Shown here piece after piece: positions 28,140 through 45,960 of a stretch of 64,000 bases of DNA (its first letter is position 1; each line of letters starts with the position of its first letter). The DNA comes from Justusliebigvirus alia. The stretch lies in the sequence record OZ035799.1; one strand, given 5' to 3'. The notes under the pieces are model-generated. The model worked only from the letters and a program-made list of their open reading frames with translations. It was not told where the DNA came from and did not search any database. The position numbers and the translations under genes were made by a program.

Positions 28140-29300
28140 TTAGTAAGAACGACCACCAAACACATACTCTGTGTAGTTTTTACGTTCTTTGTTTTTAATA
28201 ACAACTTCAATGTTGTTGCCTTTATCATCGGTGAACACAAAGTGATAACCGTCACCACCCATTGTACGGATGTGTTTTTCATCATACGTCAGCAAGATAC
28301 GGTCTACACCCCAGTAGTAGTCACCTTCTTCATCTTTGTCTTCTACTGTAACGACCCCTTCCATTTCAGGAAGATGCTCTTCTCCTAGCTTATGGTCTAC
28401 AGCTACAACATAACGATTACCGCTAAACAAACCCTGTGCTGTCATACCGTCAATATCGGTATCTGCCGAAACATCTCCTGTACGATCTACACCGTTGACT
28501 TTCAGAAGTTTAACTTCTTTTGCAGCATAGCGGTGTTCAGTAATACTGATACCCATTAATGCAAGTGCATCAGAGAATTTGTCATTAGGGTAACGGTTAA
28601 GTTCTTCTACTAATGACTGAACAATATCAAAGTTCAAGTCCACGGACAGATTATAAAGCGTTTCAAAATCTGGTAAAAAGGCTTTGTTCTCCAGATTTTT
28701 AGCCAGATAGTCATCCATAGTAGCTTTAGGTAGTTTCTTATAGCTAAAGCTGTAGAAAATACGGCTAGGGCGATTACGCAAAAATTCTGATACATAACCA
28801 TCATTTTTAGTCAATACAAACAGCTTGTCATAGCCACCAACACCATCCAGCAGGGTAAGCAAACCATCCTGTGCATCTTTTTCAGCATACAGTTTATCAA
28901 ATTCATCGATCATAATCATCACAGGTTGTGTGATTTTAGACATAAAATTGATAAAGCCTTCACCATTAAAAGCACTACCGATAGAAATAGTAGGAATACC
29001 CATTTCACGAAGAGCAGAAGACAGCATTTTAGCTTGCAAAGTTTTACCGCTACCCTTCGTACCCTCAAGGAGAACACCTGTGTTTTTACCTTTACGGCTA
29101 AGGAACGTCTTGATAATACGTTCTGATTTATCATCAGTATCACCGTATGTTACTGAAGGGACTTCCATATCGTTTTTAGGATACAGGAAGAACTCACCAC
29201 TTTGAGTAACACCTACACCAAAAGTTCCTGCTGGAATTTCTTCAATATCTGTGCCAGACTTCTGACGCAGGAAGATTTGATTGCCGAATACTGTAAACAT
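28140..29300 (-). CDS. AAA+ ATPase (paralog A)
   Basis: 386 aa; Walker A GTKGSGKT, Walker B MIMIDEFDK; collinear similarity to the + strand ATPase at 44833-45960. Confidence 0.75.
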   Translation of the reverse strand: MFTVFGNQIFLRQKSGTDIEEIPAGTFGVGVTQSGEFFLYPKNDMEVPSVTYGDTDDKSERIIKTFLSRKGKNTGVLLEGTKGSGKTLQAKMLSSALREMGIPTISIGSAFNGEGFINFMSKITQPVMIMIDEFDKLYAEKDAQDGLLTLLDGVGGYDKLFVLTKNDGYVSEFLRNRPSRIFYSFSYKKLPKATMDDYLAKNLENKAFLPDFETLYNLSVDLNFDIVQSLVEELNRYPNDKFSDALALMGISITEHRYAAKEVKLLKVNGVDRTGDVSADTDIDGMTAQGLFSGNRYVVAVDHKLGEEHLPEMEGVVTVEDKDEEGDYYWGVDRILLTYDEKHIRTMGGDGYHFVFTDDKGNNIEVVIKNKERKNYTEYVFGGRSY

Positions 29301-29320
29301 AGTTTTCTCCTCTGTTTAAT

Positions 29321-29791
29321 TTAGTCAGATTCCCAAATGTTGTCTTTCTTAATCCACATTCGTTGATTATCTGAACCTCTATAACGTTTCGTTGTTGGTT
29401 GATTCATATCATACTTACCATCTATCACTATGTCAACCAGTTTTTTAATTTTTTCTGGAATTTCTTCAAAAAGATATCCTGTATATAAGACAATATCTTT
29501 TTTGTTTCCAAAACAATCTCTTACCTTTTCAAGAACATACTCTACAGTGTCAATGTTCTCTTTGTCAAGAGGTTCACCACCTAAAACGGTTAATCCTTTA
29601 ATGAAAGGTCGAGATAAATCTTTCAAGATAAGATCTAATGTTTCAGTAGTGAACTCTTGTCCGTAGTTATACGACCAGGCTTTCTGGTTAAAGCAGCCAC
29701 GGCAACCGTGGCTACAACCGCTCACCCACAAAGAGCATCTTACACCGTCACCGTTGAGCATGTCAACAGGTTCATATCCGGCGTAATTCAA
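29321..29791 (-). CDS. nrdG: anaerobic ribonucleotide reductase activating protein
   Basis: 156 aa; TTG start; N-terminus MNYAGYEPVD and radical-SAM CSHGCRGC resemble E. coli NrdG. Confidence 0.85.
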   Translation of the reverse strand: MNYAGYEPVDMLNGDGVRCSLWVSGCSHGCRGCFNQKAWSYNYGQEFTTETLDLILKDLSRPFIKGLTVLGGEPLDKENIDTVEYVLEKVRDCFGNKKDIVLYTGYLFEEIPEKIKKLVDIVIDGKYDMNQPTTKRYRGSDNQRMWIKKDNIWESD

Positions 29792-30729
29792 AAATGTTTC
29801 TCCCTTTCTAATACTTCTTGCATTTTACCTTTATTATAAGGGCGAGAGTTAGGGGCAGAAAGGTATCCTGACACTCTTCTGATTACAGATATAGATTCTT
29901 CCTCATGATTGCCACAACTTGGACACTCGAAGCCTTTAGCTGTTGCCTTAAATTCACCATGAAAACCACATTTGAAACACTGATCTACAGGTTGGTTCAC
30001 GCCAAAATAAGGAATTTTGTTGTAGGCATAATCTACAAGAGTTTCCAGTGCTTGCAAGTTATTTTTAAGGTTTGGTGTTTCTACATAACCTATGTTCCCA
30101 CCATTACTGATTTGTGCAAAACCTTCCTCATAATCCCACTTTTGGAACGGGGTAGTGTGCATCCACACAGGTTGATGGAAAGAGTTTGTCAAGTAGTCAC
30201 GATCAATAGAACCTGGATAGCGATCATTTAATGCTTTGGCAAATTTATAGCACAAGGATTCTGCTGGTGTTCCATACAAACTAAAAGCTAAACCAGAACG
30301 TTCTTTAAATGTGCCACAGATATCCTTCATATATTGAAGGATGTTTTTACCCATTGCTTTTGGATTGGTGTTACCTGGGTATAAAATCTCCATAGCTTCT
30401 GCTAAACCTACATAACCGATACTAATAGAGGCATAACCACCTTCGAATAGCTTACCAATCTCTTCATTAGCTTCTAGTCGAGCTAAAGCCCCTTCCATAA
30501 ACAATGTAGGGTTTTGAGATGCTTTGGTATGTCTAATACGGTTAACACGTAGTATATGTGCCTTATACGCCATCTCCATATGTTGTTCCAACAGTTCAGT
30601 AAATAAGATGCCCTTTTCACGGGACTCTGCTGCAATGATAGGTAAGTTTAAAGAAACCACGCCTAAGTTGAAACGACCATCATATTTTTCACCTTGCTCT
30701 GTTGCATAGTATGACAAGAAACTTCTACA
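29788..30729 (-). CDS. nrdD: anaerobic ribonucleoside-triphosphate reductase, exon 2
   Basis: Frame continues from exon 1 across intron (MG|CRSFLSYY); glycyl-radical motif RVSGYL near C-terminus. Confidence 0.8.
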   Translation of the reverse strand, partial: CRSFLSYYATEQGEKYDGRFNLGVVSLNLPIIAAESREKGILFTELLEQHMEMAYKAHILRVNRIRHTKASQNPTLFMEGALARLEANEEIGKLFEGGYASISIGYVGLAEAMEILYPGNTNPKAMGKNILQYMKDICGTFKERSGLAFSLYGTPAESLCYKFAKALNDRYPGSIDRDYLTNSFHQPVWMHTTPFQKWDYEEGFAQISNGGNIGYVETPNLKNNLQALETLVDYAYNKIPYFGVNQPVDQCFKCGFHGEFKATAKGFECPSCGNHEEESISVIRRVSGYLSAPNSRPYNKGKMQEVLEREKHF

Positions 30730-31009
30730 CATTATGTTCAAAGTGGCTCGCAAGGCCACTCCCGCACCATTACGTGCTGCTGCATGTCACCATGCAGATC
30801 AGACTATATCTTCATGCTTAAAGCATGTCTACCATTTGGGGTGTCATAGGCTTACACCCTACGCTGCTACATTCATCACAGCTAGTCGTTAGGCATTTCG
30901 TAATAGTACCCCCCTTCTTCTGTGTTGGGAGTTCTGTTACGTTTAGCACGGGATTGTCTCGTTGAGAGTTCCCCCGTTTAGGCAGATTTTACATGAGCAG
31001 TTATAGTTT
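30730..31009 (-). ncRNA. group I self-splicing intron (ORF-less) in nrdD
   Basis: 280-nt non-coding insert; exon 1 ends in U, intron ends in G; core CUAAACGGGGGAACUCUC...GACAAUCCCGUGCUAAA resembles T4 td/nrdD intron core; P7-like GACUAG/AUAGUC. Confidence 0.7.
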
Positions 31010-31867
31010 ACCCATGCTTGTGACGCGACCATCTGAAGATCCTGTAACTTCTTTGTTTAAAGGTACAGAGATAAAATCAGGATAAATGCGTTCAGCACAA
31101 CACTCCATTGCCAGTTGCTTCAAATCATAGTTTGGATCGCCAGCTTTCATGTTAACACCATCTTCCAAGAAGAAGATAACTTTAGGAAACACAGGAGTTA
31201 CCCTATCTTTTCCTAATCCTTGTTTGTGCACCATTAGGTAGTTTTTAGTGATCATTCTACCAAAAGCAGAGGTATCCAAACCTAAACTAATTGTTATAAA
31301 AGGTGACTGACCATTTACACTCATTAGAGTGTTCACTTGGTAGATTAAAGTTTGCATTGCATCATAGACCTGTTTATCTACCATACGCATAGCAATATCA
31401 TAATCACCAACATCAGCATATATTTTATTAAAACTTGCTTTAACGTATTGACTAAGCCCAGTATCAACATGTGCACAAGTTTGTCCACCATATTGGCTAG
31501 AAGCTACTGCTTGAATAATTTGAGTTAGGACAGTAGTCGCTACACCGATAGATTTTGGTTTTTCAATATGTGCATTACCAATACGGAAACCGTTCTCAAG
31601 CATATCTTGGTAATTTACCAGGCAACAATTAGTTAAAGGTGAGAGTAAATAATCTAAATCGTGGATGTGACCATACCCACTTTTATGCCATTCTGCCAGA
31701 TCTTCCGGTAAAATATGGGTCATTGCCATGTGCTTGCTTAGGATACCTGCTAGTAAATCTCGGTGAGTATTAACAATCATTGCAGGTTTGTTTGCATTTT
31801 CACGAGTAAATTCTTCGGATGTTTGTTCGAGGAATCCGATTACATCCTCATATAGTTTTTGGGTCAT
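31010..31867 (-). CDS. nrdD: anaerobic ribonucleoside-triphosphate reductase, exon 1
   Basis: ATG after GGAGGA; track ORF runs into intron and stops after 3 extra codons. Confidence 0.8.
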
Positions 31868-31956
31868 TAATCCTCCGTGGAAAATAAAAGCCAGCTTAAT
31901 GCTGGCTTTAGGGTGGATCTTTATTTTAAATCTTTTTCGTAAGATTGTCCTTGATC

Positions 31957-32907
31957 TTAGTCAAGGTTTTTGGTAATACGTGTACAACCGTCAGAAGTCA
32001 AACCGTCAACTTGAGTTTCCCAAGTGCCATGAATATTTCGGAACAATGTTGTTACACCTTTTGGTTCATTAATAATGATTGCCATAACAAGTTTAGGATC
32101 GATAACAGACATAATCTTTTCCTCAATACCCTCTGTAATAACATTATTGCGCACAATATTAATTGCATCTTCTTGTACAGTAAGAGCACTTACGTTCTTA
32201 AGAGTATATACCTGCTGCGTAGTGTAAATGATACGAACATAACTTACAGAACGAGTAGGCACAGGTTTACGCGGTCGGCGAAAACGTGGTTTTGGTGAAG
32301 ATTCAGTCTTACTTTCATTTTTTGAATAATACTCCTCAAACAGTTTAGTAAATGTTTTTACATCAACTACAAACCGATCTTTCCTATATGGAGAATTCTT
32401 ATGTGCACCATTAATACCACTGTTTTCATCGAAGAAAGTAATGTTTTCTTCAGTTGAATACATTAGATAATGATCTGCATTTTTCCAATGTGGTTGTGGA
32501 CAATGAGGATTACAAACGGAAAGCAAGTAATTAATATTTTCTTCCGTGGCCTCAGTATCCAGGAAGCACGTATTATGCACAGTCAGTTGTACTTTTTCAG
32601 CCATATCTTTTTCTTTATCCTCTTTAGCAAGATATTCAGTACGAATAATCTCCAGAAAACCTTCAGGTGTTACTTCCATAAATTTATATTCAGGATGAAG
32701 CTCCATATATTCAAATCCACAACCATCTAATTGCTGTAGGAAGTTAGGGTAGAAGAACAAATCATTAACACTGTGAATCAGATCATTGATTTCTGCTTCA
32801 GTTGTGTAACCAAAACTCTTGTGAATTGCTTCGTTAAGAATATGCAGGATACCCATCTCTTCTGCTGCTTTTTTAACTTCCAGTTTATTAGCGTAAAATG
32901 CAATCAT
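31957..32907 (-). CDS. hypothetical protein
   Basis: 316-aa ORF; AAGGAGAA RBS; terminator-like hairpin downstream. Confidence 0.55.
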   Translation of the reverse strand: MIAFYANKLEVKKAAEEMGILHILNEAIHKSFGYTTEAEINDLIHSVNDLFFYPNFLQQLDGCGFEYMELHPEYKFMEVTPEGFLEIIRTEYLAKEDKEKDMAEKVQLTVHNTCFLDTEATEENINYLLSVCNPHCPQPHWKNADHYLMYSTEENITFFDENSGINGAHKNSPYRKDRFVVDVKTFTKLFEEYYSKNESKTESSPKPRFRRPRKPVPTRSVSYVRIIYTTQQVYTLKNVSALTVQEDAINIVRNNVITEGIEEKIMSVIDPKLVMAIIINEPKGVTTLFRNIHGTWETQVDGLTSDGCTRITKNLD

Positions 32908-32924
32908 TATGTTCTCCTTCTAAA

Positions 32925-33359
32925 TTAGTTTAAAATTTCTTTTGCAATGGTAGAAGCAAGTTTTCCATCATATTGATTCGGATACTCTGCTTTAAGGTGT
33001 TTCATCATATCTGGCATTTTCTTGCCTGTCAAGGCAAATTCTTCAGCAATAGCTCGAAGATCATCTTCAGATAGCATTTCTGGCAAATATTTTTCCAGAG
33101 TGGTGATATCACGCATAGCTCGCTCACACTTGCTAATGGAGGCATTAACTTTCTTAAGCGAGTCTAGTTCCTCTTTAGCGTGTGCAATACCAATCTTAAC
33201 AATGTTAATCATAATATCGTCTTCTGATTTGTTTAGATTTGCCTTTTGAGTACGAGCAAGGTCAAACTCACCAATAATATTAGTTAACAAAGCAAAAGCA
33301 CCCTTATCGGTTGTACGTGCTAAGATACGATCTGCTTTCATTTGTGTCACAATAGACAT
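32925..33359 (-). CDS. GatB/YqeY-domain protein
   Basis: 144 aa; LEKYLPEMLSEDDLRAI...KKMPDMMKHLKAEYPNQYDGK matches YqeY pattern. Confidence 0.6.
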   Translation of the reverse strand: MSIVTQMKADRILARTTDKGAFALLTNIIGEFDLARTQKANLNKSEDDIMINIVKIGIAHAKEELDSLKKVNASISKCERAMRDITTLEKYLPEMLSEDDLRAIAEEFALTGKKMPDMMKHLKAEYPNQYDGKLASTIAKEILN

Positions 33360-33371
33360 TCTATTCTCCTC

Positions 33372-33944
33372 TTATTTGCTAATGCTTTGAGTCTTGTTTA
33401 CAACACGATTTATTGCCAGTGAAGCCCTAGGCTCTGCAATACCTGTTGCATAGATATAAGGATGACCTCTTGGAGACTCCCTCATACCGAATGAACCTAA
33501 TTCTAAACCATATTCATCCTCTATGTCAACCCCAATATTAGTGGGTACTAAATATGTTTTAACTCCATAATAAGTAGAGAAGAAACAGCGCATAGAGTTA
33601 GCATACTCTTCAATTGTAGCATCAGGGTAGAACTCAATCAACTCCAATTTCAAGAAAATATTGAAATGAGTATCATCTAAATTTTCTTCTGTACGGTAAC
33701 ATGGTGTTAGTGCCATATAAGGATTACCTGCTGCAAATTCAAAACCATCCTTCTCCATTTGCAGGAAAGATTGTTCTGCACTAGCTACATAGTATTTACC
33801 GTTAGGATGACCTAATGGGCGATCCTCTTTATTTTCTGGTAGTGTGTACGCCAGTATATCAGCATCCACGAGGTATGGAACTTCTAACATTTGTGCAAAC
33901 CGACCATAGTAATCAATAGCTTGAGCTATTACTTCAACATTCAT
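33372..33944 (-). CDS. class II aminoacyl-tRNA-synthetase-like catalytic core protein (tentative)
   Basis: 190 aa; motif-2-like YRTEENLDDTHFNIFLKLELIEF and motif-3-like GLELGSFGMRE. Confidence 0.35.
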   Translation of the reverse strand: MNVEVIAQAIDYYGRFAQMLEVPYLVDADILAYTLPENKEDRPLGHPNGKYYVASAEQSFLQMEKDGFEFAAGNPYMALTPCYRTEENLDDTHFNIFLKLELIEFYPDATIEEYANSMRCFFSTYYGVKTYLVPTNIGVDIEDEYGLELGSFGMRESPRGHPYIYATGIAEPRASLAINRVVNKTQSISK

Positions 33945-34192
33945 GAGCGACCTCCATTGCGGAATGCACGTTTAGTAATGTTCGACATAGTGATCAAATC
34001 TTGAAGCGTCATATCAGGAAAATGCTGTTCAAGAACACCTTCAACAGCGCCTACAATATCTGATAACTCAATAAGTTGCATCAGCTTGCAATCTTGATCA
34101 ATAGCATCTTGAAGTTCATAAAGCTCTTCTTGAATCTTAGCAACAGAACCATATTCCTCTTTGCTAATCTCCTTCAAATGATACCCTGCCAC
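33941..34192 (-). CDS. MazG/HisE-like all-alpha NTP pyrophosphohydrolase (tentative)
   Basis: 83 aa; GTG start after AAGGGGG; short acidic helical protein. Confidence 0.4.
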   Translation of the reverse strand: MAGYHLKEISKEEYGSVAKIQEELYELQDAIDQDCKLMQLIELSDIVGAVEGVLEQHFPDMTLQDLITMSNITKRAFRNGGRS

Positions 34193-34346
34193 TTTAACCC
34201 CCTTAGTTTACCAGTTTATTTATGTCTGGTAAAAGATTTATTTCACCTAAAAAATCACCTTCACCTTCCTCTAACCAACTCTCATATGCTTGTGCATGAT
34301 TATAGTTACCATCAAAAGAATCTGCAACAAATTTTTCTACAGTTTT

Positions 34347-36977
34347 TCAATATCTGCCAGCGCCAAATACACCAAGTTTAATACCATTGATCGGTAAAGT
34401 GGTGCTTGTTGGTACTTTCTCTGTTGCAACACGGTTGATATCTATAATCTCCTGTACGGTTGTATTCCATTGTAAGCATTTAACACAACGGGTGTGCGCT
34501 ACATACAGTAGGTTTCGCTCTGCCTCTTCTAGTCCTACCCATTCACCAGTCTTTTTATCATAGTTGGAAGGAAAATCATTAGCAACAATAACCTGATCCC
34601 ACTCCAAACCTTTAGACTTGTGTGCTGTAGTCAGTGTGACTTTTGCTGTAGGGGAATTTCTATGCGTTCTAAGTGTATGTGCTATAGTGTTTGCCTTACC
34701 AGAAACTACGATGTTTAACAAGCGTTTAGCATCTGGATCAGCCTCTGCACACTCAACAAATTCATCCCAGTCTGCATAAGGTAATACAGTTTCATGTTTT
34801 ACTTTCTCAATATCTCCTCTCCGAAGAGCATTAACACTATCTACCATAGAGATAAAATCCCTGGTATCTACGTTAATAATAATTTCTTCCCCATCTGCAA
34901 TACGATCCATTGCCTCCATAAGCAAGGTTAAATTCTTGCGAAAGATGATAGTGTAAGGTTTTGTATAGTCTACAACATCTGATTTGTAGCTACCTACTAC
35001 AGTATCAAAGCCTTTACCAACCAAAGGATGACGCAAAGGTTCTTTATCACTTAAAATCATATTGGCAATGTTTGCCACTTTGGGGCCAAAACGGAAGCAA
35101 GCAGTTAATGGAAGCTCTGCCCCATACTTAGCTGTTTCAATCATCATATTAGAGCTACCTCTAAATTGATAAATACAGTTGTGGCTAAGAATTTCATTGC
35201 CAAAGAAGTTAGCAGTATCCTCTACTTCAATATCATAGTAGATACCCTCACTATCTACAATATCCACAATCTCTTCTGCTGTTACAGTATCACCATCTTT
35301 TACCAACACAGACATGCCTTTAAACAAACCCGCTGCCGGAATTAAGTTATATTTGGCAGTGTCTACAGAGGACATGCATTCTTTTAAAGATGCAAACGGA
35401 ACTATTTCAAGGATCTTTTGTGCAAAACTCAATGCTTCACAATAAGAATTGAAATATTTACGTACACGGTAACGACCTTCCAATTTAGCAACACTTACGC
35501 TTACACCTGCTTTAATGAGTGAAGCATAGATCGGCATTTCACTTTCTGTCCACTCAAAACTGACTTGTGTTCCTTTACAACCTTGTGCTCGCAAAGTCAC
35601 TGTTAACATTTTTCTTTCATCTACTGCACAATTGATGCTGTGCCAATGTGGATAAGCAAAATGATAGTCTTTATCCTCTAAAAGTTTAAAACCATTCTGT
35701 CCGAATTGTTCAAAGATGTTATTGATCCTTTCTTGATTAATGCCGCGTGAACTTGCTTCAAATACACAAGTAGGAATGCCATATTGTAAACTGTATGCCA
35801 TTTCTTTTTCCATAGCAGCTTCGCGATTTTCAACAATGTCCAACACCCATAATTTCTGTGCTTTTTCAGAACGTGTACGTTGCCCCAGTTTAGAAAAACC
35901 TTCTTTATCATCGAATTTGTTAGTGATCCCTACTCGGAAACCTAAATCTTTCCTCCACATTAGGTATACCACCATCTGGTCATCTTTCAGAACATAGGAT
36001 GAAGCCCAAATACGATGGTTATGTGTCATATCTAAAGTTTTACCTGTAGCAGTAATAATATTCCTACCTTTTGTACGTGTAGATAAAGTCTTATTTGTTA
36101 CTTTTCTAAATGTAACTTTACCATTAGAATAAGACTCTACCTTATCACCGATTTGCAGGTCTTTCATTGTAACCTGACCATTCTCGGTGTTAAGTACCGT
36201 GTTTTCCGACACACATTGGAATTCATCGCCAACTACCACAATTTGTTTTGCAGATTTAGCATTTCGCAGAATAGACAAGAATGCAGGGTTAACATCCTGG
36301 AATTCATCACCAAAAATAATATCATAACCAAGATCAGCACCAGATAATTCAAACAATTTTACATAGGTGTCATGCGTCATCAAAGTATCTGTGTTAGGAT
36401 CGATGCGCTCTCGCCACAATTGTTTTGCATACTTAACTACTTCTGTAATTAGTTTGTGTTCGTTAATACCTTTTCTTTTAATATCTGCAAGATGTACACC
36501 AGGAAAATGTTTACGGCTGATAAAAGGATCATCCGAAAATTCAAACTTACCTACGGTTTGCTTGATCATTAAACCAATCATAGCACGAGTTAAAAGTGTT
36601 TTCCCTCGTTTATCAATAAGATTATTAATCTTAAATTTCTTTGCTATCTCGCTACCTGTACCTGCAACGTTAACATACTGTCCTTCTGGTCGTGACAGTT
36701 TTGCACGTAAACGATGATCCAGGAATTGATAGCAAATAGAATGCAATGTACGGCATTCTACATTTAGTGGCATCTTACGTCGTGCTTCTTCTGCCATGCT
36801 TTTATTGAAAGCTAAGTAAAGAATGCGATCTTCTGTACTGTTAGCCAGCAAATAAAGTGTTGACGTTTTGCCTGATCCAGATTTAGCTTGGATAGTTAAA
36901 AAGCGATGGTCTGGAAAAGCCTCCTTAATAGCTGTTTGCTCTTCTGTTGGAGTGAAGCTCAACTCTTTCTTAGCCAT
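34347..36977 (-). CDS. SF1 DNA helicase (UvrD/RecD/Dda-like) interrupted by an intein
   Basis: ATG at 36977 after AGAGAGG; Walker A AKSGSGKT, motif II GDEFQD, motif III split as GDEFQ|intein|CIYQFRGS, motif VI YVAHTR. Confidence 0.8.
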   Translation of the reverse strand: MAKKELSFTPTEEQTAIKEAFPDHRFLTIQAKSGSGKTSTLYLLANSTEDRILYLAFNKSMAEEARRKMPLNVECRTLHSICYQFLDHRLRAKLSRPEGQYVNVAGTGSEIAKKFKINNLIDKRGKTLLTRAMIGLMIKQTVGKFEFSDDPFISRKHFPGVHLADIKRKGINEHKLITEVVKYAKQLWRERIDPNTDTLMTHDTYVKLFELSGADLGYDIIFGDEFQDVNPAFLSILRNAKSAKQIVVVGDEFQCVSENTVLNTENGQVTMKDLQIGDKVESYSNGKVTFRKVTNKTLSTRTKGRNIITATGKTLDMTHNHRIWASSYVLKDDQMVVYLMWRKDLGFRVGITNKFDDKEGFSKLGQRTRSEKAQKLWVLDIVENREAAMEKEMAYSLQYGIPTCVFEASSRGINQERINNIFEQFGQNGFKLLEDKDYHFAYPHWHSINCAVDERKMLTVTLRAQGCKGTQVSFEWTESEMPIYASLIKAGVSVSVAKLEGRYRVRKYFNSYCEALSFAQKILEIVPFASLKECMSSVDTAKYNLIPAAGLFKGMSVLVKDGDTVTAEEIVDIVDSEGIYYDIEVEDTANFFGNEILSHNCIYQFRGSSNMMIETAKYGAELPLTACFRFGPKVANIANMILSDKEPLRHPLVGKGFDTVVGSYKSDVVDYTKPYTIIFRKNLTLLMEAMDRIADGEEIIINVDTRDFISMVDSVNALRRGDIEKVKHETVLPYADWDEFVECAEADPDAKRLLNIVVSGKANTIAHTLRTHRNSPTAKVTLTTAHKSKGLEWDQVIVANDFPSNYDKKTGEWVGLEEAERNLLYVAHTRCVKCLQWNTTVQEIIDINRVATEKVPTSTTLPINGIKLGVFGAGRY
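35178..36215 (-). mobile_element. intein (~346 aa) within helicase motif III
   Basis: Starts Cys (CVSENTVL), block B THNH, ends SHN followed by Cys; middle region large enough for an endonuclease domain. Confidence 0.7.
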
Positions 36978-37979: not shown

Positions 37980-38000
37980 TATATTTTCCTTATTGGTTTG

Positions 38001-38366: not shown

Positions 38367-38730
38367 AAATATTCTCCCAAATCCAATAATCATCTGTGTA
38401 AGTAGGATGCCTTTTATCCCACTCTGTTCTAGCCCAAGCAACCGCTGCTACCAACACATCACCATGACAAGGTTGAGGTGCGCAGAAGCAAACTAAGTCT
38501 TTCCCTTCTAATTCTAACAAATCCTCAAGAGTGATTTTACCACAACGAATTTGTTCCCACAACCACTCTTTATATCTTTGTATAGTTGATCCTCGTGGTT
38601 CATCATCCTTTAACTTAAAAGGATTTGCAAACTTTGAGGCTTTTAACCCCATATGAGGCATAGCTCTGCCAATGTACACTGCACCTTCAGGTATTACTTT
38701 ACCTAAGTGGTAAAAATTTAATACTTTCAT
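38344..38730 (-). CDS. hypothetical protein (DUF4326-like pattern)
   Basis: Track start is TTG at 38754; first in-frame ATG at 38730. Confidence 0.4.
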   Translation of the reverse strand: MKVLNFYHLGKVIPEGAVYIGRAMPHMGLKASKFANPFKLKDDEPRGSTIQRYKEWLWEQIRCGKITLEDLLELEGKDLVCFCAPQPCHGDVLVAAVAWARTEWDKRHPTYTDDYWIWENIYEDYTRN

Positions 38731-38731
38731 A

Positions 38732-39082
38732 TTAACCCAAACACATCTGTGCAATCAAGCCCTGTATAAATTTATTAGCTTCTTTACTGTCGTAGTCAGT
38801 CTCTTCTGGATATCCATCTTCATCGTACACAACTGTACCTTCAATATACCCTGCCTCAATTAAGGCGCGGATCATATCAAATTGCCAGCATGAGTTACCA
38901 AATGGACGTTTACCATTAAAACACTCTTCTTCTCTCCATAACGTAGAGAGTAGTTGTCGGAAATATTCCCGTACAGTGACAGTACCAAGATCTGAATCCT
39001 CAAACATAACATCCAGGGCATCAGGATTGCTTTTCTCTACATAAGGGATATATTTAACACCATTAATAGTTACATCAAGCAT
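38732..39082 (-). CDS. hypothetical protein
   Basis: 116-aa ORF; AAGGAGAA RBS. Confidence 0.5.
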   Translation of the reverse strand: MLDVTINGVKYIPYVEKSNPDALDVMFEDSDLGTVTVREYFRQLLSTLWREEECFNGKRPFGNSCWQFDMIRALIEAGYIEGTVVYDEDGYPEETDYDSKEANKFIQGLIAQMCLG

Positions 39083-39445
39083 TTATTTCTCCTTATCATC
39101 ATATTCTAAGAACATATCTGCACGATATGCTTTACGCTCTTCAAACTTAGCAGGATCTACAACAATAAGCAATACAAGGTTAACATCTAAATACTTCTTA
39201 ACAAATAGAAATAAATCTTTTCCACAGTTAAAACCTACACCAGTATAGGCATCCCCATATTGATCTACTGATTTAATCTTCTTACTAACCGTACATTCTA
39301 TGCTATTCTTTTCTTCTTGGTATAAGGCTTTCCCACCCCAATATGTAAAGAATTTAGTACCGTCAGCACCAAGTTTAAAACCTTCTGTTGCATGCCCAGC
39401 AAATGAAAGTAAACATAACCAAGTGATCATCAGGTACTTTAGCAT
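39083..39445 (-). CDS. secreted/periplasmic protein with signal peptide
   Basis: ATG at 39445 gives signal peptide MLKYLMITWLCLLSFAGHA; track start is upstream GTG. Confidence 0.45.
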   Translation of the reverse strand: MLKYLMITWLCLLSFAGHATEGFKLGADGTKFFTYWGGKALYQEEKNSIECTVSKKIKSVDQYGDAYTGVGFNCGKDLFLFVKKYLDVNLVLLIVVDPAKFEERKAYRADMFLEYDDKEK

Positions 39446-39446
39446 T

Positions 39447-39929
39447 TTAACCACCCAATTGCAAATGTTTAGAAAGAACAATATCCCACTGATCACCACA
39501 ACCGTTATCTATGCGGAACATAATGTACGTATCATCTTCTTCTACGACATATAACACCTCATAGGAATTACAACAGCCTTCCCAATTTTTAACAGCCTCT
39601 GGTGTATCATGTGTAAAAATTTCATTACCATCATATGACCAAAACAAAGGGGTGAGGTTTTCGAACGTCAGTGAAGTAGGGTTTACTTCATCTTTAACTG
39701 CTTCCTCGTATTCTTTATGCGTTTGTACTGCTTTAGTTAGTGTACTCATGTCTATCTCCTTTTCTCCTTCTTGACTATGGAGGATAGCGAACTCTCTAAA
39801 CTCCACTTCACGCCATGTTTTCAGGTAGTGCTTTATAATTTTATCAACATCTACCTGTTCAACATTACTTTTCAAGCAATAGTAATCATGGTCTTCGCCC
39901 ATTCTACCCCATATGCTGTACATTGTCAT
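39447..39929 (-). CDS. hypothetical protein
   Basis: 160-aa ORF. Confidence 0.45.
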   Translation of the reverse strand: MTMYSIWGRMGEDHDYYCLKSNVEQVDVDKIIKHYLKTWREVEFREFAILHSQEGEKEIDMSTLTKAVQTHKEYEEAVKDEVNPTSLTFENLTPLFWSYDGNEIFTHDTPEAVKNWEGCCNSYEVLYVVEEDDTYIMFRIDNGCGDQWDIVLSKHLQLGG

Positions 39930-40197
39930 CTGATTGATCCTTTACATTGCTCTTGGTATACACAGGAATAACATCGTCGTGATCTTTATTACTTTCATCT
40001 GTTAAAGCCCAAAACAATTTACCTGCTGGATGTTTAAAGATGTAAGCAATAGGTTCCTTTTCCTGGGCTTCTTTGCTACGGATACCATCCCGCCAGGCAA
40101 GCCAAGTGTAGATCATCATTTCTTGACGCTCTTCTTCGTTAGGCCACATATGTGGTGGGAAGTTTTTATCAAACCATTGCTTAAATTCTTCAGTCAT
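39904..40197 (-). CDS. hypothetical protein
   Basis: 97-aa ORF; AAGGAG RBS. Confidence 0.5.
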   Translation of the reverse strand: MTEEFKQWFDKNFPPHMWPNEEERQEMMIYTWLAWRDGIRSKEAQEKEPIAYIFKHPAGKLFWALTDESNKDHDDVIPVYTKSNVKDQSDDNVQHMG

Positions 40198-40207
40198 AAT
40201 CTACTCC

Positions 40208-40372
40208 TTAGCGTACAAAGTTAACTTCTGCTTCTTTCAGTTTTGACACTTCTACATAACCACCATGATCATCTTTAATCCATTCTTTTCCTTTACGGAT
40301 GATAACAGGATATGTAGAGTGAGTAAGTTTAGGTACAGATCTTTTTGTTTTAGTGATAGAAATGTTTTGCAT
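40208..40372 (-). CDS. small hypothetical protein (54 aa)
   Basis: Not in track; ATG after AAGGAGACT; stop 10 nt before next gene. Confidence 0.4.
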   Translation of the reverse strand: MQNISITKTKRSVPKLTHSTYPVIIRKGKEWIKDDHGGYVEVSKLKEAEVNFVR

Positions 40373-40432
40373 AGTAGTCTCCTTAGTAAATTTTACATAG
40401 AGTCTAGATTATTTAGTAGATAGAGTCAATAA

Positions 40433-40699
40433 CTAATTACTGTTAGATCTGTATTCTGTCTTCCATTCACAATGGTAAACTTCAACAGGTTCTAACTTCC
40501 AATGTTCAGGAACTAGTTCAGGACAATATCTACAAAAGAGAAATAGATAGATAACTAAGACAGGTATTAAATAGTAAAATGGTATACGATCATAACCATA
40601 CTTACGAGATAACATGTAGACATATAGATAGGGTATAACAATTAATCCTATAACTATAAGTAAGAAGAGAAGTATAAACCTTAGTGTAGTAACATCCAT
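40433..40699 (-). CDS. small membrane protein
   Basis: 88 aa, two hydrophobic helices; AGGAGAA RBS. Confidence 0.5.
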   Translation of the reverse strand: MDVTTLRFILLFLLIVIGLIVIPYLYVYMLSRKYGYDRIPFYYLIPVLVIYLFLFCRYCPELVPEHWKLEPVEVYHCEWKTEYRSNSN

Positions 40700-40863
40700 A
40701 GTATTCTCCTATACAGTAATATACTCTGTTCCTGCCCCTCCATGAGTGACAGGAACAATATCTATAGAGAATACTAACTCGCTTCGCTCGTCACCTTTCA
40801 GGTTTAGGGTAGCATGTTTTTCTGAAAAAGTCAATACTCTCCACAAAACTTTACAAAATACTT

Positions 40864-41136
40864 TTACATAGGTACAACAGAGTCTGTTTTGAAGTCGTAC
40901 ATATGATTTACACCTGTGATTTTTGACATAGAGATTGCACGTTTAGCACCTGCAATTACCTGGTCTGTCTTCTTAATCTCTTCACGGAACTTACGTACAG
41001 TTAAAGAGAAGAAACGATGATCCATCCATTGACGATTCACACGATCACGCTTGAAGTGACGGAAATCTTCAATCTGTTTATTGCGCAATCGGCGCAGTAC
41101 ATGCAATAGTTGATAGTAAGGGTGTTTATTTTTCAT
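40864..41136 (-). CDS. hypothetical basic protein
   Basis: 90-aa ORF; GGAGAA RBS. Confidence 0.5.
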   Translation of the reverse strand: MKNKHPYYQLLHVLRRLRNKQIEDFRHFKRDRVNRQWMDHRFFSLTVRKFREEIKKTDQVIAGAKRAISMSKITGVNHMYDFKTDSVVPM

Positions 41137-41139
41137 AAA

Positions 41140-41568
41140 TTATTCTCCAAATCGAAAGTCGTCAATATCATCAAACCATACACAATGGCGAGTCCTTTCT
41201 TTTTCTGTTGCAGATATTGTTTCAACAGCTTTAGGACTAAGCACAACAGGAATGTAACGAATAGGTCGTTCATAATAGTAGCCATACTTTTCTGTATTAG
41301 CTGCCTCAAAGACTTTACGGCGTTCTTCAAGATCTTCTATGGTGAATCCTACCATATAACCATCATGTTTGCTACCCCATCCTTCCTCACTTTCAACAAT
41401 TGGGATATAAAAGCCGTTACGCGTCCCTGACGCTGGTTTTTCTTGAGCCTGAAGGCAAGCCTCCCATCCTGCTTTAAAGACGTTATAGAGCGATTTACGC
41501 ACGTTATGAGTGCCGCTTTCGCTTGCTGGATAGAGTTCATTAAATTTATCTTGGATTTGTTGTGTCAT
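41140..41568 (-). CDS. hypothetical protein
   Basis: 142-aa ORF; AAGGGG RBS. Confidence 0.5.
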   Translation of the reverse strand: MTQQIQDKFNELYPASESGTHNVRKSLYNVFKAGWEACLQAQEKPASGTRNGFYIPIVESEEGWGSKHDGYMVGFTIEDLEERRKVFEAANTEKYGYYYERPIRYIPVVLSPKAVETISATEKERTRHCVWFDDIDDFRFGE

Positions 41569-41711
41569 ACTCGCCCCTTAGTGATTATTTGACCAGCTAA
41601 ACAAATAGCTTGTAGTACAATAAAGAAGTAGCCTAATTTTACACTACCCAATACCCAGAATGCAATGTTTGCAAACAAACAAAAAGCAATATTAAGTCTA
41701 AAGAATAACAT

Positions 41712-41912
41712 TTAATCCCCTTCATATTTAGGTAAAGGCATATATGCCACAATAGGAGGGTAATCAAAGTGAAAATGATGGTTCACCACAATAATCTTAC
41801 CAGACATACTTTTATGCACTTCACAATACCCTTTTTCACCATCTTCCATTACCACCACATACTCACCTAGTGGGATATCGTATGGATCTTCTACTTTTAC
41901 CCATTCTGTCAT
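41712..41912 (-). CDS. hypothetical protein
   Basis: 66-aa ORF; ATGA overlap with upstream gene. Confidence 0.45.
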   Translation of the reverse strand: MTEWVKVEDPYDIPLGEYVVVMEDGEKGYCEVHKSMSGKIIVVNHHFHFDYPPIVAYMPLPKYEGD

Positions 41913-42178
41913 TTTGGAAACACCTCTTGTCCATCTTCATGCATTTGTAGTAAAGTTTCACAGATTTCATACACATCTTGATATGTTACAACTGAGAGAT
42001 CAGATTCTTGATCTTCGACAAGCATAGCACAAAGAGCTTTAATGTCAATACCTTTACAATGTTCCGTAGCTATACGGTACATTTCACCATCCTCCCAAAC
42101 AATTGGTTGCGGAAGCAAAACGTCTGTACCATCTTCACAAGTTACAATGTAGTCTGCAATATTATCACGAATTTTCAT
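41909..42178 (-). CDS. hypothetical protein
   Basis: 89-aa ORF; AAGGGGG RBS; ATGA overlap. Confidence 0.45.
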   Translation of the reverse strand: MKIRDNIADYIVTCEDGTDVLLPQPIVWEDGEMYRIATEHCKGIDIKALCAMLVEDQESDLSVVTYQDVYEICETLLQMHEDGQEVFPK

Positions 42179-42432
42179 TGTACTACCCCCTTAAATCCAG
42201 ATGTGCTGCCAGTTTTAACTTTTGCTTTAAGATGTTCCAACTCTACCATAGGTGTTGCTACTTGTATAGGATTTTCCTCAACCTCATGAATATAATATTC
42301 ATAATAAGCATACTTACCAATAGAGTGCAGATACTTAATGGCATGTTCAGGCGAATCTGCTTCGACATACCCTAAATCTTTTGTGGTACGACCTTCACAA
42401 TCACCTTCGGTAGTTACATGATAAAGTGTCAT
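42175..42432 (-). CDS. hypothetical protein
   Basis: 85-aa ORF; GAGGAGG RBS. Confidence 0.5.
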   Translation of the reverse strand: MTLYHVTTEGDCEGRTTKDLGYVEADSPEHAIKYLHSIGKYAYYEYYIHEVEENPIQVATPMVELEHLKAKVKTGSTSGFKGVVQ

Positions 42433-42581
42433 AAAACCTCCTCATAGTAAGGTAAAGCCTTGATCAGTTGTTCTGAAGTGCCATTTTGTACCCACGTAAC
42501 ACCATTGTCAACAGAAACATACCCTTTTTTGTCAATAAATTTACGCAGACAGCCAGTGAACTTATTTTTGTAGATAACCAT
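42429..42581 (-). CDS. small hypothetical protein (50 aa)
   Basis: Not in track; ATG after AAGGAG; TGA overlaps next ATG. Confidence 0.4.
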   Translation of the reverse strand: MVIYKNKFTGCLRKFIDKKGYVSVDNGVTWVQNGTSEQLIKALPYYEEVL

Positions 42582-42593
42582 CTTTACTCCTTG

Positions 42594-42947
42594 TTACATC
42601 CACAGATTATGGAAATACTTAGCAAACAAAATGCGACCTTCTAAACGATCTTGCCGCTGCTTTTCATTAACTTCTTCTGGTGGAGTTGAGTCCTTAAAAG
42701 AAGACTCCATTTTTTCAAGAATTTCTAACCAGTGCTCTGATGCTCGTTCTTCCATATAAGGTAGATAGTCACCTTTAGCGTGTGGGTACATCCGACGAAG
42801 TAACCCACTAGGAATTTTAACATTATTTGTGGCTATCACTTTTGCACGATATGCAGAAAGTGCATTGTAGATCAGTTTACTTAGTGTCACATCTAAATCA
42901 AGAAGATCACTCTCTTCAAATTGAATTTCATCGTGTACAATTTTCAT
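42594..42947 (-). CDS. hypothetical protein
   Basis: 117-aa ORF; AAAGGAGAG RBS. Confidence 0.5.
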   Translation of the reverse strand: MKIVHDEIQFEESDLLDLDVTLSKLIYNALSAYRAKVIATNNVKIPSGLLRRMYPHAKGDYLPYMEERASEHWLEILEKMESSFKDSTPPEEVNEKQRQDRLEGRILFAKYFHNLWM

Positions 42948-42958
42948 ATCACTCTCCT

Positions 42959-43249
42959 TTATAGTAAAACACGTTTTGCACTGCTTGGTGCATTGTCGAA
43001 CATGTTTATCACTTTGTCAAGTTTGTGTATTAACTCGTTCGTAATGTTCCACTCTTTGTATGATCTCCATTGTTTCTTATTCTCACCTACCTGGTGTAAA
43101 ACTTTGATTGGTGCATTCAAACGTACATTGCGTTCTTTGTCCTCTTCAAAAGAGGCTAACCATTTTTCGTTATGCCCATGAACAGCAATAATAATGCCAA
43201 AACCATCAAAAGTTTCTGTAATATTCTTAGTTGCTAGTGTGATGTTCAT
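42959..43249 (-). CDS. hypothetical protein (first gene of leftward block)
   Basis: 96-aa ORF; AGAGGT RBS; divergent intergenic region upstream. Confidence 0.5.
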   Translation of the reverse strand: MNITLATKNITETFDGFGIIIAVHGHNEKWLASFEEDKERNVRLNAPIKVLHQVGENKKQWRSYKEWNITNELIHKLDKVINMFDNAPSSAKRVLL

Positions 43250-43312
43250 ATCTAACCTCTTTTGTTACGATACACACACACAGAGTACCAGAAATTAATT
43301 TCAGATCAAGTA

Positions 43313-43341
43313 TTGACATACTGTTTTATTGTGCTAATCTT
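43313..43341 (+). promoter_or_regulatory. putative sigma70 promoter (TTGACA-N17-AATCTT) in divergent intergenic region
   Basis: Perfect -35 hexamer, weak -10; 30 nt upstream of RBS/ATG at 43373. Confidence 0.3.
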
Positions 43342-43372
43342 AATGCATACACAAATGAGAGGAGATAAACGA

Positions 43373-43924
43373 ATGCAAAACATCGATCTTACTTGGATAG
43401 AAGCCAAAGAAGCAATGTTAAAAGGCAAACGCGTTAAACATAAATACTTCTGCGAAGGAGAATGGTTTGAAATGCGTAACCGATCCATTGTAGATGAAAA
43501 AGGGAATGACATGCAACAATGGTTCAAAAATGAAATTTGGCAGGGAACAGGTTGGTCTGTAGTTGAAGAGCAGCCTAGCTCAAGCGCACTGTTTAGCCCT
43601 ACTATGTATCGCGTTATCGGTGCTTTAGTTGTTGATCACGGAATTGCAGTGGAAAAAGAATGCTGGGAAGAGGTATCTTTTTTCAACCTGGCTTCTTATG
43701 CAAAAAGCCATATGCACTTGTTTGAAGAAGGGGATGAATTTGTTCTTCGTATGCGATACGGCAAAGAATTCAGATTACCACTTGATAACGATGTAGACAC
43801 TGTTGTAAAATGGTTAGCAGAGCATTATGCTTACGATGCAATTTGTGGTCGCAGCTTCGGCAACGAACGCTGGGACATGATTTGTGAAAAATATGATTTT
43901 GAGCCGGAGTACGGAGTTTTATAA
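43373..43924 (+). CDS. hypothetical protein
   Basis: Track ORF 43262..43924 starts at TTG upstream of promoter; ATG at 43373 follows GAGAGGAG. Confidence 0.55.
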   Translation: MQNIDLTWIEAKEAMLKGKRVKHKYFCEGEWFEMRNRSIVDEKGNDMQQWFKNEIWQGTGWSVVEEQPSSSALFSPTMYRVIGALVVDHGIAVEKECWEEVSFFNLASYAKSHMHLFEEGDEFVLRMRYGKEFRLPLDNDVDTVVKWLAEHYAYDAICGRSFGNERWDMICEKYDFEPEYGVL

Positions 43925-44175
43925 TGTTAAGTATCAAACCTAAAATGATAACAGAAGACGAAGCAGACTTTATTTTCAAATGTGGACGTGTATGGAGAGA
44001 ATTCACAAAAGGGAATGAAGTAGTGGTTGTTGTCGAACACAAGATATCTATTCAGGATCTGTTTGGACAATATGTTGATGTTATTAAATTAGGTATTGAC
44101 AAGGGTTTAGTTGAGGTGTTAACATTAGATCAAGTTGAAGCAGAGCACCTCGATAAAGTGGTGGTTGAATTTTAA
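43924..44175 (+). CDS. hypothetical protein
   Basis: 83-aa ORF; start overlaps upstream stop (TAATG). Confidence 0.5.
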   Translation: MLSIKPKMITEDEADFIFKCGRVWREFTKGNEVVVVVEHKISIQDLFGQYVDVIKLGIDKGLVEVLTLDQVEAEHLDKVVVEF

Positions 44176-44195
44176 AATACAGACGGGAGAAAGGT

Positions 44196-44369
44196 ATGAG
44201 TTTCTTTGTTACAGTATTTATGGCTATCTGGATTGTAGTCTCACTCGTTCTTTTCCTGGTGGGTTGTCTGGAAGAGATTAAGAAAGCGGTTATTTGCGGT
44301 TTCTTTGGCTTTATTATCTCTCCTGCCTGGATGTGGTTCTTCATTATGATTGGTTTCCTTAAAAGGTAA
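44196..44369 (+). CDS. small membrane protein (57 aa)
   Basis: Not in track; ATG after GGGAGAAAGG; two hydrophobic segments. Confidence 0.4.
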   Translation: MSFFVTVFMAIWIVVSLVLFLVGCLEEIKKAVICGFFGFIISPAWMWFFIMIGFLKR

Positions 44370-44383
44370 GTGAGGAATAAAGA

Positions 44384-44821
44384 ATGAGTAAAACAAACGC
44401 AATCGCAGATAAAGCAACGGATGTACTTCTGAACATGGTTAACGTCACTATTCAAACAATGAGTGATGTTGTGGAGTTTGGAAAACAACAAATTCCAGAA
44501 GTAATCCATCAATTATTAGTGTGGAAAGCAGTATCCGCAGGTTTATGGCAACTTTTTAGTATTTGCTTTATGGTTATTACTTTTATTGCTGTGCGGAACC
44601 TCGTAAAAGCAATTAAAGATAAAGAATGCCTGTGGTCACGAGATCGCTATGGTGAAGTATCTGCTTTACCTATTGTTGGCCTTGTTGTCTGTGCTTTCTT
44701 TTTCTTTTTAGGATTTGTTATTTTCTTTTCGAATTTTGATTGGCTAAAAATCATTATTGCACCAAAAGTGTATCTGATTGAATTTGCTGCTGATTTAATT
44801 CGTTCATCTCAACAAAAATAA
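44384..44821 (+). CDS. membrane protein
   Basis: 145 aa; GAGGA RBS; hydrophobic helices. Confidence 0.5.
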   Translation: MSKTNAIADKATDVLLNMVNVTIQTMSDVVEFGKQQIPEVIHQLLVWKAVSAGLWQLFSICFMVITFIAVRNLVKAIKDKECLWSRDRYGEVSALPIVGLVVCAFFFFLGFVIFFSNFDWLKIIIAPKVYLIEFAADLIRSSQQK

Positions 44822-44832
44822 AAGGGGTTAAA

Positions 44833-45960
44833 ATGAAATACACGATTTATGGTGATATTGTAAGTGTAAATAAAGATATGGGCGTGGAATCTAACTATCT
44901 TCCACCTGGATTCTATACTGTTAGTCGTGATCCCCTTGGCAATTACTTTTTAAGCCGTGGTAATCTAACAGGTGTACCGGATGTTCTGTATGGTGAAACA
45001 GAAAAACGAGCAAATCACGTTATTCGTACATTCCATCGCCGGAGTGCACAAGGTAAAAATACAGGTTTGCTCCTGACAGGCACTAAGGGCAGTGGTAAAA
45101 CTATGTTAGCCAAACTCATTAGTCGTGACCTTGTAGAAGAAGGTATTCCAACTATTATGGTTACTCAAGCCTACAGTGATGCTAATTTCATTGAGCTTAT
45201 TAGCAAGATCACCGACAAAGCAGTGATTATTTTTGACGAGTTTGATAAAGTATATGAGAAGAAACAAGATCAAGAAGCACTTCTCACTTTGTTAGATGGT
45301 ACTGGCAGTGGTAATAAACTGTTTATTCTGACTAAAAACAGTGGTTTTATCTCTGAATTCTTTTTAAATCGTCCTAGTCGTGTGTTTTATAATTTTAATT
45401 ATGATAAAATCTCACTAGAAACTATGATTGACTATTTAGATAAAAACCTGGATAACAAAGCACACTTTGATAATTTCCAAAGACTTTGGGATGTAAGTTT
45501 AGAGTTGTCCTTTGATGTGATCCAAGGTATAGTAGAAGAACTTAATTTCTACCCTGATTTATCCTTTAAAGAATGCATCTCTATGATGGGCGTTTCTTTG
45601 GGTGGTGGTAATAAGTGGGATATCAGCAGCGTTGTTATTAATGGGAAACTTCAGAAAGTTAGCTGGGTATCTAGTTGGCATAACTTCACACCTGCAATCT
45701 TTTTAGGTGGCTCGTGCACACTAGACGTGTACTTGTCATCTCCAAGTGATGCAGACTCTAAAGAAGCCCTTGCTAATAGCTCTTACGTGGTTTTTGATGA
45801 TGAAGGAGATGCTCGAATTCCATTGAATGCGACAAAAATGAAAGCAGATCTTATTACAGGCGGTAAAATCGTTGTGTTTAGTGATGATCCAGAAGATTCT
45901 TTCCGTATTGTTCTGGAACCAACTATCACCAATGGTGCAACTTTGGCAAGCGTGTTTTAA
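44833..45960 (+). CDS. AAA+ ATPase (paralog B)
   Basis: 375 aa; Walker A GTKGSGKT, Walker B IIFDEFDK; many conserved blocks shared with 28140-29300 gene. Confidence 0.75.
   Translation: MKYTIYGDIVSVNKDMGVESNYLPPGFYTVSRDPLGNYFLSRGNLTGVPDVLYGETEKRANHVIRTFHRRSAQGKNTGLLLTGTKGSGKTMLAKLISRDLVEEGIPTIMVTQAYSDANFIELISKITDKAVIIFDEFDKVYEKKQDQEALLTLLDGTGSGNKLFILTKNSGFISEFFLNRPSRVFYNFNYDKISLETMIDYLDKNLDNKAHFDNFQRLWDVSLELSFDVIQGIVEELNFYPDLSFKECISMMGVSLGGGNKWDISSVVINGKLQKVSWVSSWHNFTPAIFLGGSCTLDVYLSSPSDADSKEALANSSYVVFDDEGDARIPLNATKMKADLITGGKIVVFSDDPEDSFRIVLEPTITNGATLASVF

Follow-up and report, generated by a model that had tools for sequence, protein, structure and literature searches.

What does a phage gain from two versions of the same ATPase gene, placed on opposite strands and far apart? 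The question is raised by a 64,000-nucleotide stretch of DNA from Justusliebigvirus alia (sequence record OZ035799.1; hereafter the window), in which the open reading frame (ORF) listing and its translations give two related AAA+ proteins: A, of 386 residues plus stop, at 28140–29300 on the minus strand, and B, of 375 residues plus stop, at 44833–45960 on the plus strand, 15.5 kb away. A reading of the letters without database searches (the sequence-only reading) had located both genes correctly and had taken them for diverged paralogs specialised for different substrates, perhaps in host takeover or counter-defence. Our analysis bears out the paralogy, places the ATPase modules in the classical AAA clade and indicates that the divergent C-termini are versions of one domain. 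We see roughly an even chance that A and B are two active, soluble, ring-forming protein-remodelling ATPases whose C-terminal domains pick different partners, as their sequences and predicted structures suggest.

The pair itself is not newly seen. A and B are orthologs of gp190 and gp221 of phage phi92, respectively (A is 99% identical in DNA to phi92 gp190 and 100% to its counterpart in J. alia OZ035770), and the phi92 record gives both genes the same annotation, 'ATPase; predicted AAA domain fold; putative ATPase or Zn metalloprotease'. No discussion of gp190 or gp221 was found in the literature, including a 2026 paper on the phi92 virion structure and a 2025 comparison of Stephanstirmvirinae. 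Our additions are the classical-clade placement, the finding that the C-termini are a single acidic domain that has diverged, figures for how large the family is and how far it is confined to phages, and the recurrence of paralog pairs.

The paralogous pair and its family

The alignment of A with B establishes true paralogy between two forms of an uncharacterised AAA+ ATPase. BLASTP matched residues 2–253 of A to 3–256 of B with 119/254 identities (47%), 70% positives and E = 1e-81, far more than a common P-loop would give. The Walker A motif reads GTKGSGKT in both, and the long block LLTLLDG.G....LF.LTKN.G..SEF..NRPSR.FY.F.Y recurs in both, as the sequence-only reading had it; its Walker B motif, IDEFDK, is literal in A but is FDEFDK in B, leaving DEFDK as the common part. 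The C-terminal divergence that it described is real, although it concerns the last third of each protein (from around residue 255) rather than half. Likewise, the claim of similarity along the whole length holds for profiles and not for pairwise alignment: past residue ~255 BLASTP gave no significant alignment, whereas the profile of family PHROG 2376 matched residues 1–376 of the 386 in A (E 3.6e-104) and 1–367 of the 375 in B (E 6.6e-108). Neither the profile libraries nor the literature that we searched makes the two proteins orthologs of a housekeeping phage ATPase of defined function.

Members of PHROG 2376, annotated 'ATPase', include phi92 gp190 and gp221, phAPEC8 gp014, Brochothrix A9 gp41, Bacillus Deep Blue gp066, and proteins of GAP32, Serratia BF and crAss-like phages. 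An exhaustive profile search recovered 7,063 representatives (clusters at 50% identity) at E<=1e-3 and 3,217 at E<=1e-30; the best 150 listed are almost all 350–440 residues long. With tblastn, the family was found in 302 of 50,697 phage records, comprising phi92- and phAPEC8-like phages, GAP32-like jumbo phages, phages of Aeromonas, Proteus, Acinetobacter, Bacillus, Lactococcus, Lactobacillus, Brochothrix and Staphylococcus, and crAss-like phages, while full-length matches among the predicted structures of BFVD (template-modelling score 0.6–0.84) came from Erwinia, Salmonella, Agrobacterium, Proteus, Lactobacillus and crAss-like phages. Prokaryotes, searched as one genome from each of 185,579 species, yielded only 37 loci, 35 of them on contigs of metagenome-assembled genomes. 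The family is thus, by these searches, very large and phage-restricted.

Two peculiarities of the distribution may be recorded here. The only members in isolate bacterial genomes, in Magnetospirillum molischianum DSM 120 (L098) and on a 1.6-Mb contig of Pararhizobium sp. BT-229 (L104), may be prophage-borne or domesticated. Four GenBank records (MG065639, MG065645, MG065656 and MG065689), labelled Campylobacter phages A150, A145, C3 and A110a with host Campylobacter jejuni, carry a gene 98.3% identical to this phi92-like gene in genomes of phi92-like size, and their host label looks doubtful.

Both copies are present in all eleven phi92-like records among the matches listed and in Klebsiella phage KP13-26, and one metagenomic contig bears an A-type and a B-type gene (L015, L022). 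phAPEC8, which belongs to the same subfamily, has a single copy, and the genes after it, an 'endonuclease' gene and one like PVP-SE1 gp121, are those that follow B; in a neighbour-joining tree the B clade takes in the phAPEC8 type with a bootstrap of 1.00. B therefore occupies the ancestral position, with A as the extra copy. The split is old, since A and B (47% identical) are as distant from each other as either is from the jumbo-phage copies (48%). The same tree sets A, B and an intermediate group of family members (P0041-46) apart from the jumbo-phage copies with a support of only 0.59, so that A may have arisen by duplication within the lineage or by acquisition from another phage. An independent family pair occurs in Lactobacillus phage SAC12B (Herelleviridae; L095), where gp073 and gp067 (19941–21095 and 24203–25303) lie on one strand ~3 kb apart; its motors are 35% identical and its C-terminal domains unalignable, the same pattern as in the phi92 pair.

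The ATPase module and the C-terminal domain

The sole Pfam match of either protein is AAA (PF00004; 29.4 bits for A and 38.9 for B, cut-off 21.2), and the curated libraries Pfam, NCBIfam and PADLOC together offer only generic AAA assignments. Conservation was counted over 186 non-identical family members. The Walker A Lys, the Walker B Asp-Glu, the sensor-1 Asn and the motif R177-P-[S/G]-R180 (A numbering) are invariant in 186/186, as is the Walker A pattern G80-x-K-G-[SA]-G-K-[TS] together with D132-E133; the arginine-finger motif is exactly RPGR in 62/186, and 182/186 have F, Y or W as the pore-loop-1 residue. F224-D225, at the start of the third lid helix, is also invariant, and no Arg is invariant in the lid. 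Aligned by eye, this F-D sits opposite the 'A-D' of the classical 'GAD', which would leave the family with no conserved sensor-2 Arg. All invariant catalytic residues being kept in A and B, both look catalytically intact.

AlphaFold2 (AF2) models built on 45–46 homologs, with mean predicted local distance difference test (pLDDT) scores of 83.9 for A and 87.8 for B, share four predicted parts: an N-terminal beta domain of five strands (residues ~1–45), the alpha/beta core of the AAA module, a lid of four helices that stops near residue 250, and a beta-rich C-terminal domain of ~115–130 residues with a short, probably flexible tail of low confidence. The modelled core and lid, with the invariant Walker motifs, put both proteins in the AAA+ superfamily. 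In A (minus strand), the small N-terminal beta domain and linker (residues 1–55; 29136–29300) have DSSP strands at 2–5, 8–11, 17–19, 26–31 and 37–41 and the family-conserved residues P23, L39, P48, Y52 and G53. The core (residues 56–190) and lid (191–255), at 28536–29135, contain the Walker A motif G80–T87, the pore-loop aromatic F111, the Walker B motif D132-E133, sensor-1 N166, R177-P-S-R180 and lid F224-D225. In B (plus strand), core and lid span residues 56–258 (44998–45606), with Walker A at G83–T90, pore-loop aromatic Y114, Walker B at D135-E136, sensor-1 N169 and R180-P-S-R183. Neither protein has an HExxH motif, a Peptidase_M41 match in Pfam or an indicated transmembrane segment (maximum hydropathy 1.0 over 19 residues), and the alternative in the phi92 record, a Zn metalloprotease of FtsH-type M41 kind, is thereby excluded.

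The clade emerges from comparison of the family profile with the Protein Data Bank (PDB), in which the top 60 of 116 significant sequences were all classical AAA proteins, led by Cdc48/p97 (~4e-12) and followed by VAT, Rix7, AFG2, NVL and Pex1. From Walker A these alignments continue across 'LLTLLDG' to sensor 1, and they set 'NRPsR' opposite 'LRPGR' of p97 (in 'ILRPGRL'). A Foldseek search of the PDB with the predicted structure of B returned Bcs1 first (5e-10), then YjoB, Rpt subunits, FtsH and p97, and single-sequence searches of the PDB gave only weak matches, again to classical AAA. A match of influenza NS1 to B residues 201–291 (E ~1e-3) was disregarded as spurious. The best scores against models of loaders and initiators lay far under the cut-offs (Hda, 29.8 bits against 194.8; IstB, 19.9 against 200), and the helical insert of those proteins was not seen in the AF2 models, where alpha2 has 8 residues. 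From profiles and predicted structures we take the motor to be a compact AAA module of the classical clade; what doubt remains concerns its non-canonical pore loop and shortened loops.

Beyond the lid, profile–profile comparison found the A-type and B-type C-terminal domains collinear over 107 columns (P = 1.6e-4), and the intermediate group matched the A-type domain at P = 7e-9 and the B-type at P = 6.5e-8. In a joint alignment they share a nearly invariant N-G and an acidic loop, D-E-D-G-D, and the last strand leads into hydrophobic-aromatic residues. The comparisons indicate that the two C-termini are one homologous, strongly diverged domain, linked via the intermediate group. Its net charge is negative in 185/185 members (median −8 over ~118 residues); 95% of members have an aromatic residue among their six last positions, and in 65% the chain ends with one. 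In the window, this acidic, beta-rich domain comprises residues 256–386 of A (28143–28535, minus strand; net charge −9), fast-evolving and ending in a low-pLDDT aromatic tail, ...YVFGGRSY, and residues 259–375 of B (45607–45957, plus strand; net charge −6), ending in ...LASVF.

The C-terminal domain also evolves faster than the rest. Relative to A, A-type orthologs of related Klebsiella phages retain 87–90% identity in the motor and 41–50% in the C-terminal domain; for B-type orthologs relative to B the figures are 80–84% and 51–60%. Ratios of nonsynonymous to synonymous change (dN/dS; pairwise Nei–Gojobori, the close sequences from IMG/VR being 4 loci per gene) were 0.00–0.08 in both paralogs for the N-terminal domain, motor and lid, and 0.05–0.41 for the C-terminal domain (0.07–0.41 in A). 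Among near-identical phi92-like genomes, the motor of A shows 0–1 nonsynonymous against 18–21 synonymous differences and its C-terminal domain 3–7.5 against 4.5–12, while B has 0–1 nonsynonymous differences in total. These data indicate that the C-terminal domain evolves ~5x faster than the motor and yet is under purifying selection, with relaxed or shifting constraint; pairwise dN/dS never exceeded 0.41, and positive selection could not be demonstrated. The low ratios in both A and B mean that both genes are functional and maintained by selection. The substrate specialisation proposed in the sequence-only reading fits a C-terminal part that is the fastest-evolving in both lineages, provided that it is understood as heavy divergence of one homologous domain and not as possession of different ones.

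Genomic setting and possible functions

A is the final gene of a minus-strand block that includes nrdD, nrdG and a UvrD-type helicase gene. A terminator-like hairpin (28112–28133, minus strand; 9-bp stem with 5 GC pairs, tetraloop, T-rich tail) lies 7 nt after its stop and is the only such site in 25500–31200. B comes last in a short series of small plus-strand genes without annotation, which starts at a divergent intergenic region at ~43.3 kb; 16 nt after the stop of B there is again a terminator-like hairpin (45976–45997, plus strand; 9-bp stem with 5 GC pairs, tetraloop). Promoter-like sites around A and B are no commoner than in shuffled sequence, so we read no expression timing from them. 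Elsewhere, in phAPEC8, Brochothrix A9, Deep Blue and two metagenomic contigs, the neighbours are runs of small unannotated early-type ORFs. Neighbour clustering over 69 loci showed no gene kept across the whole family; NadV, NadM-Nudix, a phrog_335 phosphatase, rIIA and rIIB recur in one clade only and are absent from the window. In that deep environmental clade (loci L025-L091, e.g. L068, L077, L039 and L056; ATPases 38–94% identical) the order is NadM-Nudix, NadV (NAMPT), ATPase, rIIA, rIIB. NadV is present in 22/80 loci and directly upstream of the family ATPase in 12, and the phrog_335 'phosphatase' is frequent too; the order may reflect no more than shared ancestry.

Several other features lie near the two genes. 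A group I intron (Rfam RF00028; 72.3 bits, E 2e-16) at 30780–31055 on the minus strand splits nrdD into ORFs 29788–30759 and 31001–31867, in agreement with the 'spliced variant' of phi92. Downstream of A, 26226–27750 (minus strand) encodes a ComF-like PRTase_3 protein (E 1.5e-41) and a HAD hydrolase, and the leftward continuation in phi92 (gp172-gp187) includes a phosphatase, a TerC-like membrane protein, a TelA-like 'tellurite resistance' protein and a 'stress protein'; the region past A resembles a phage-borne Ter-type stress or nucleoside-modification cluster. The 'hypothetical tRNA' annotated in phi92 (NC_023693, 117581–117668), antisense within gp190 and thus on the plus strand inside 28140–29300 here, is probably spurious, since ARAGORN finds no tRNA within the window. 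Adjoining B, gp222 (46035–47207, plus strand) has four CapR domains and a T5orf172 (GIY-YIG-like) domain; it is called 'endonuclease' in phi92 and phAPEC8 and occupies the same position beside the B-type ATPase in both. As a homing-endonuclease-like gene it is not a plausible partner of B.

How might the two proteins work? On the remodelling reading, an oligomeric ring would use ATP hydrolysis to pull on or remodel a substrate protein by way of its central pore, whose lining would include the conserved aromatic of the pore loop, and the acidic, fast-evolving C-terminal domain, with its tail, would attach the ring to a partner or substrate particular to the lineage. In this picture the oligomeric state, a protein instead of a nucleic acid as substrate, the part played by the C-terminal domain and the timing of expression are inferred. 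The phi92-like phages would keep two versions, B closing a short early-type operon and A closing the nrdD/nrdG nucleotide-metabolism block, and the two would probably act at different times of infection; their C-terminal domains are so diverged that different partners seem most likely. Several points weigh against this reading. The pore loop reads [FYW]-x-[GD] instead of the canonical aromatic-hydrophobic-Gly, the pore-loop-2 region is shorter than that of p97, and the short beta2-alpha2 helix typical of the classical clade is unresolved in the AF2 models, where DSSP assigns a loop. Hda, DnaC-like, IstB and clamp-loader models are matched weakly in NCBIfam and PHROG. Substrate selection in classical AAA proteins is usually N-terminal, not C-terminal. 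The C-terminal domain profile found no relative in the PDB (best E 0.2, to CRABP2), which makes the role given to that domain a guess; dN/dS below 1 is no sign of an arms race; and a literature search yielded no functional study or experimental datum for any family member.

The weak matches raise the question of whether A and B are instead nucleic-acid-directed AAA+ factors (helicase loaders, clamp-loader-like or initiator-like proteins) for phage replication or recombination. B does match the clamp loader phrog_168 at 1e-8 and Hda at 3.9e-7, besides the matches to DnaC-like loaders and IstB, and A lies inside a nucleotide-metabolism and replication block with NrdD/G and the UvrD-type helicase. 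The loader-type matches, however, span only Walker A to sensor 1, at 30 bits against a cut-off of 195. Moreover, R-P-[S/G]-R has the three-residue spacing of classical AAA proteins, no conserved sensor-2 Arg or initiator-type helical insert is apparent, and the PDB profile search returned only classical-clade proteins in its top 60. The C-terminal domain, strongly acidic in every member, is ill suited to DNA binding, and most family members lie among small early genes outside replication modules. We consider a replication role quite unlikely.

Evidence on the pair itself bears on two further explanations. A and B could be subunits of one hetero-oligomeric ring (cf. Rpt1-6, Pex1/Pex6 and Yta10/Yta12), the duplication having subdivided one job: the two types stay together in all the listed phi92-like records, in KP13-26 and on the metagenomic contig, every catalytic residue is kept in both, and the arrangement recurs in the SAC12B pair. 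Most phages, phAPEC8 included, nevertheless have a single copy, which makes homo-oligomers the ancestral working form; A and B are on opposite strands in separate transcription units, each with its own terminator-like hairpin, and their motors, just 47% identical, have drifted as far from each other as from the jumbo-phage copies. We hold a shared ring to be improbable. That one copy is a decaying or regulatory pseudo-ATPase is less credible by far: the excess of nonsynonymous differences in A (3–7.5 against 0–1 in B) among near-identical phages is set against motor dN/dS <= 0.08 in both lineages, retention of all invariant catalytic residues in both, and the persistence of A-type orthologs at 70–75% identity in Klebsiella phages. 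The motif conservation and dN/dS effectively refute it.

There remains the role in host takeover or counter-defence that the sequence-only reading had raised. Dedicated rings would then dismantle host immune or housekeeping complexes, or feed host proteins to host proteases, with the acidic C-terminal domain engaged in an arms race with host targets. The ~5-fold faster evolution of that domain would fit, as would the environmental-phage gene lying between NadV/NadM-Nudix and rIIA/rIIB, given that NadV, NadM-Nudix and rII genes are linked to countering NAD-depleting defence and Rex-type exclusion; Trip13, for its part, dismantles HORMA-CdnC, and the conserved C-terminal aromatic tail may be likened to the docking tails of HslU and proteasomal ATPases. 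Yet dN/dS reaches 0.41 at most, and PADLOC gave no match to a specific defence system and none to its Trip13/Cap6 models, the best being mad8 (E ~1e-3) over the generic P-loop region. The NadV/rII synteny is limited to one deep clade and absent from the window, and the motor's conservation in phages infecting Proteobacteria, Firmicutes and Bacteroidota can be explained no less well by a general phage-internal task than by host-specific antagonism. The link to defence is thus a hypothesis with circumstantial evidence from gene neighbourhood only, and we hold it doubtful. A bolder extension of the remodelling reading would make PHROG 2376 a major unrecognised class of phage Cdc48/Trip13-like unfoldases that extract or unfold specific host proteins (such as immune complexes, or basic nucleoid- or ribosome-associated proteins caught by the acidic C-terminal domain), the aromatic tail perhaps passing substrates to a host peptidase and two versions meaning two targets; we regard this as a long shot.

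Comparison with known AAA systems

Phages, to our knowledge, are commonly assumed to rely on AAA+ machines of the host, such as ClpXP, Lon and FtsH, and not to bring a classical-clade unfoldase of their own. By sequence, the family of more than 3,000 clusters (50% identity) appears to carry the hallmarks of an active Cdc48/FtsH-type motor, and it spans large phages of Proteobacteria, Firmicutes and Bacteroidota. If the unfoldase reading is true, these would be the first virus-encoded protein-unfolding machines for host takeover in bacteria; if the proteins are routine replication or assembly helpers, the outcome is a useful but ordinary annotation. We would rate the interest as moderate, the family being large, widespread and mechanistically suggestive, with nothing in the data surprising by itself. 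The phi92 and SAC12B pairs are a natural experiment in which the same engine bears different C-terminal domains; phi92-like phages grow on E. coli K-12, and the partners of A and B, once identified, would annotate thousands of phage genes.

Within PHROG 2376, A and B differ in nothing of kind from the other members, and the family name is generic, without an assigned function. Compared with the Trip13/Pch2-like ATPase of type III CBASS (cyclic oligonucleotide-based antiphage signalling system), A and B have another N-terminal domain, no match to Trip13/Cap6 models of PADLOC or NCBIfam, and no HORMA partner nearby. From Bcs1 and YjoB of B. subtilis (15–18% identity) they differ in having neither a transmembrane segment nor a Bcs1_N match in Pfam, and in Bcs1 the C-terminal domain is missing. 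Solved AAA proteins share no more than 14–22% identity with A and B. Relative to the classical AAA proteins at large, A and B consist of one unusually compact AAA module with shortened pore-loop regions; the tiny N-terminal beta domain is, by sequence tests, not a double-psi barrel, OB ring or MIT domain, and at the C-terminus there is an additional acidic beta domain for which the profile search found no PDB relative. What they have in common with Cdc48/p97, VAT, Rix7/NVL, AFG2, FtsH and Rpt/PAN/Mpa is the Walker A and B motifs, the 'LLT.LDG' helix, the sensor-1 Asn and R-P-G/S-R, and probably also the lack of a sensor-2 Arg (in the by-eye alignment) and, within the non-canonical motif, the aromatic residue of pore loop 1.

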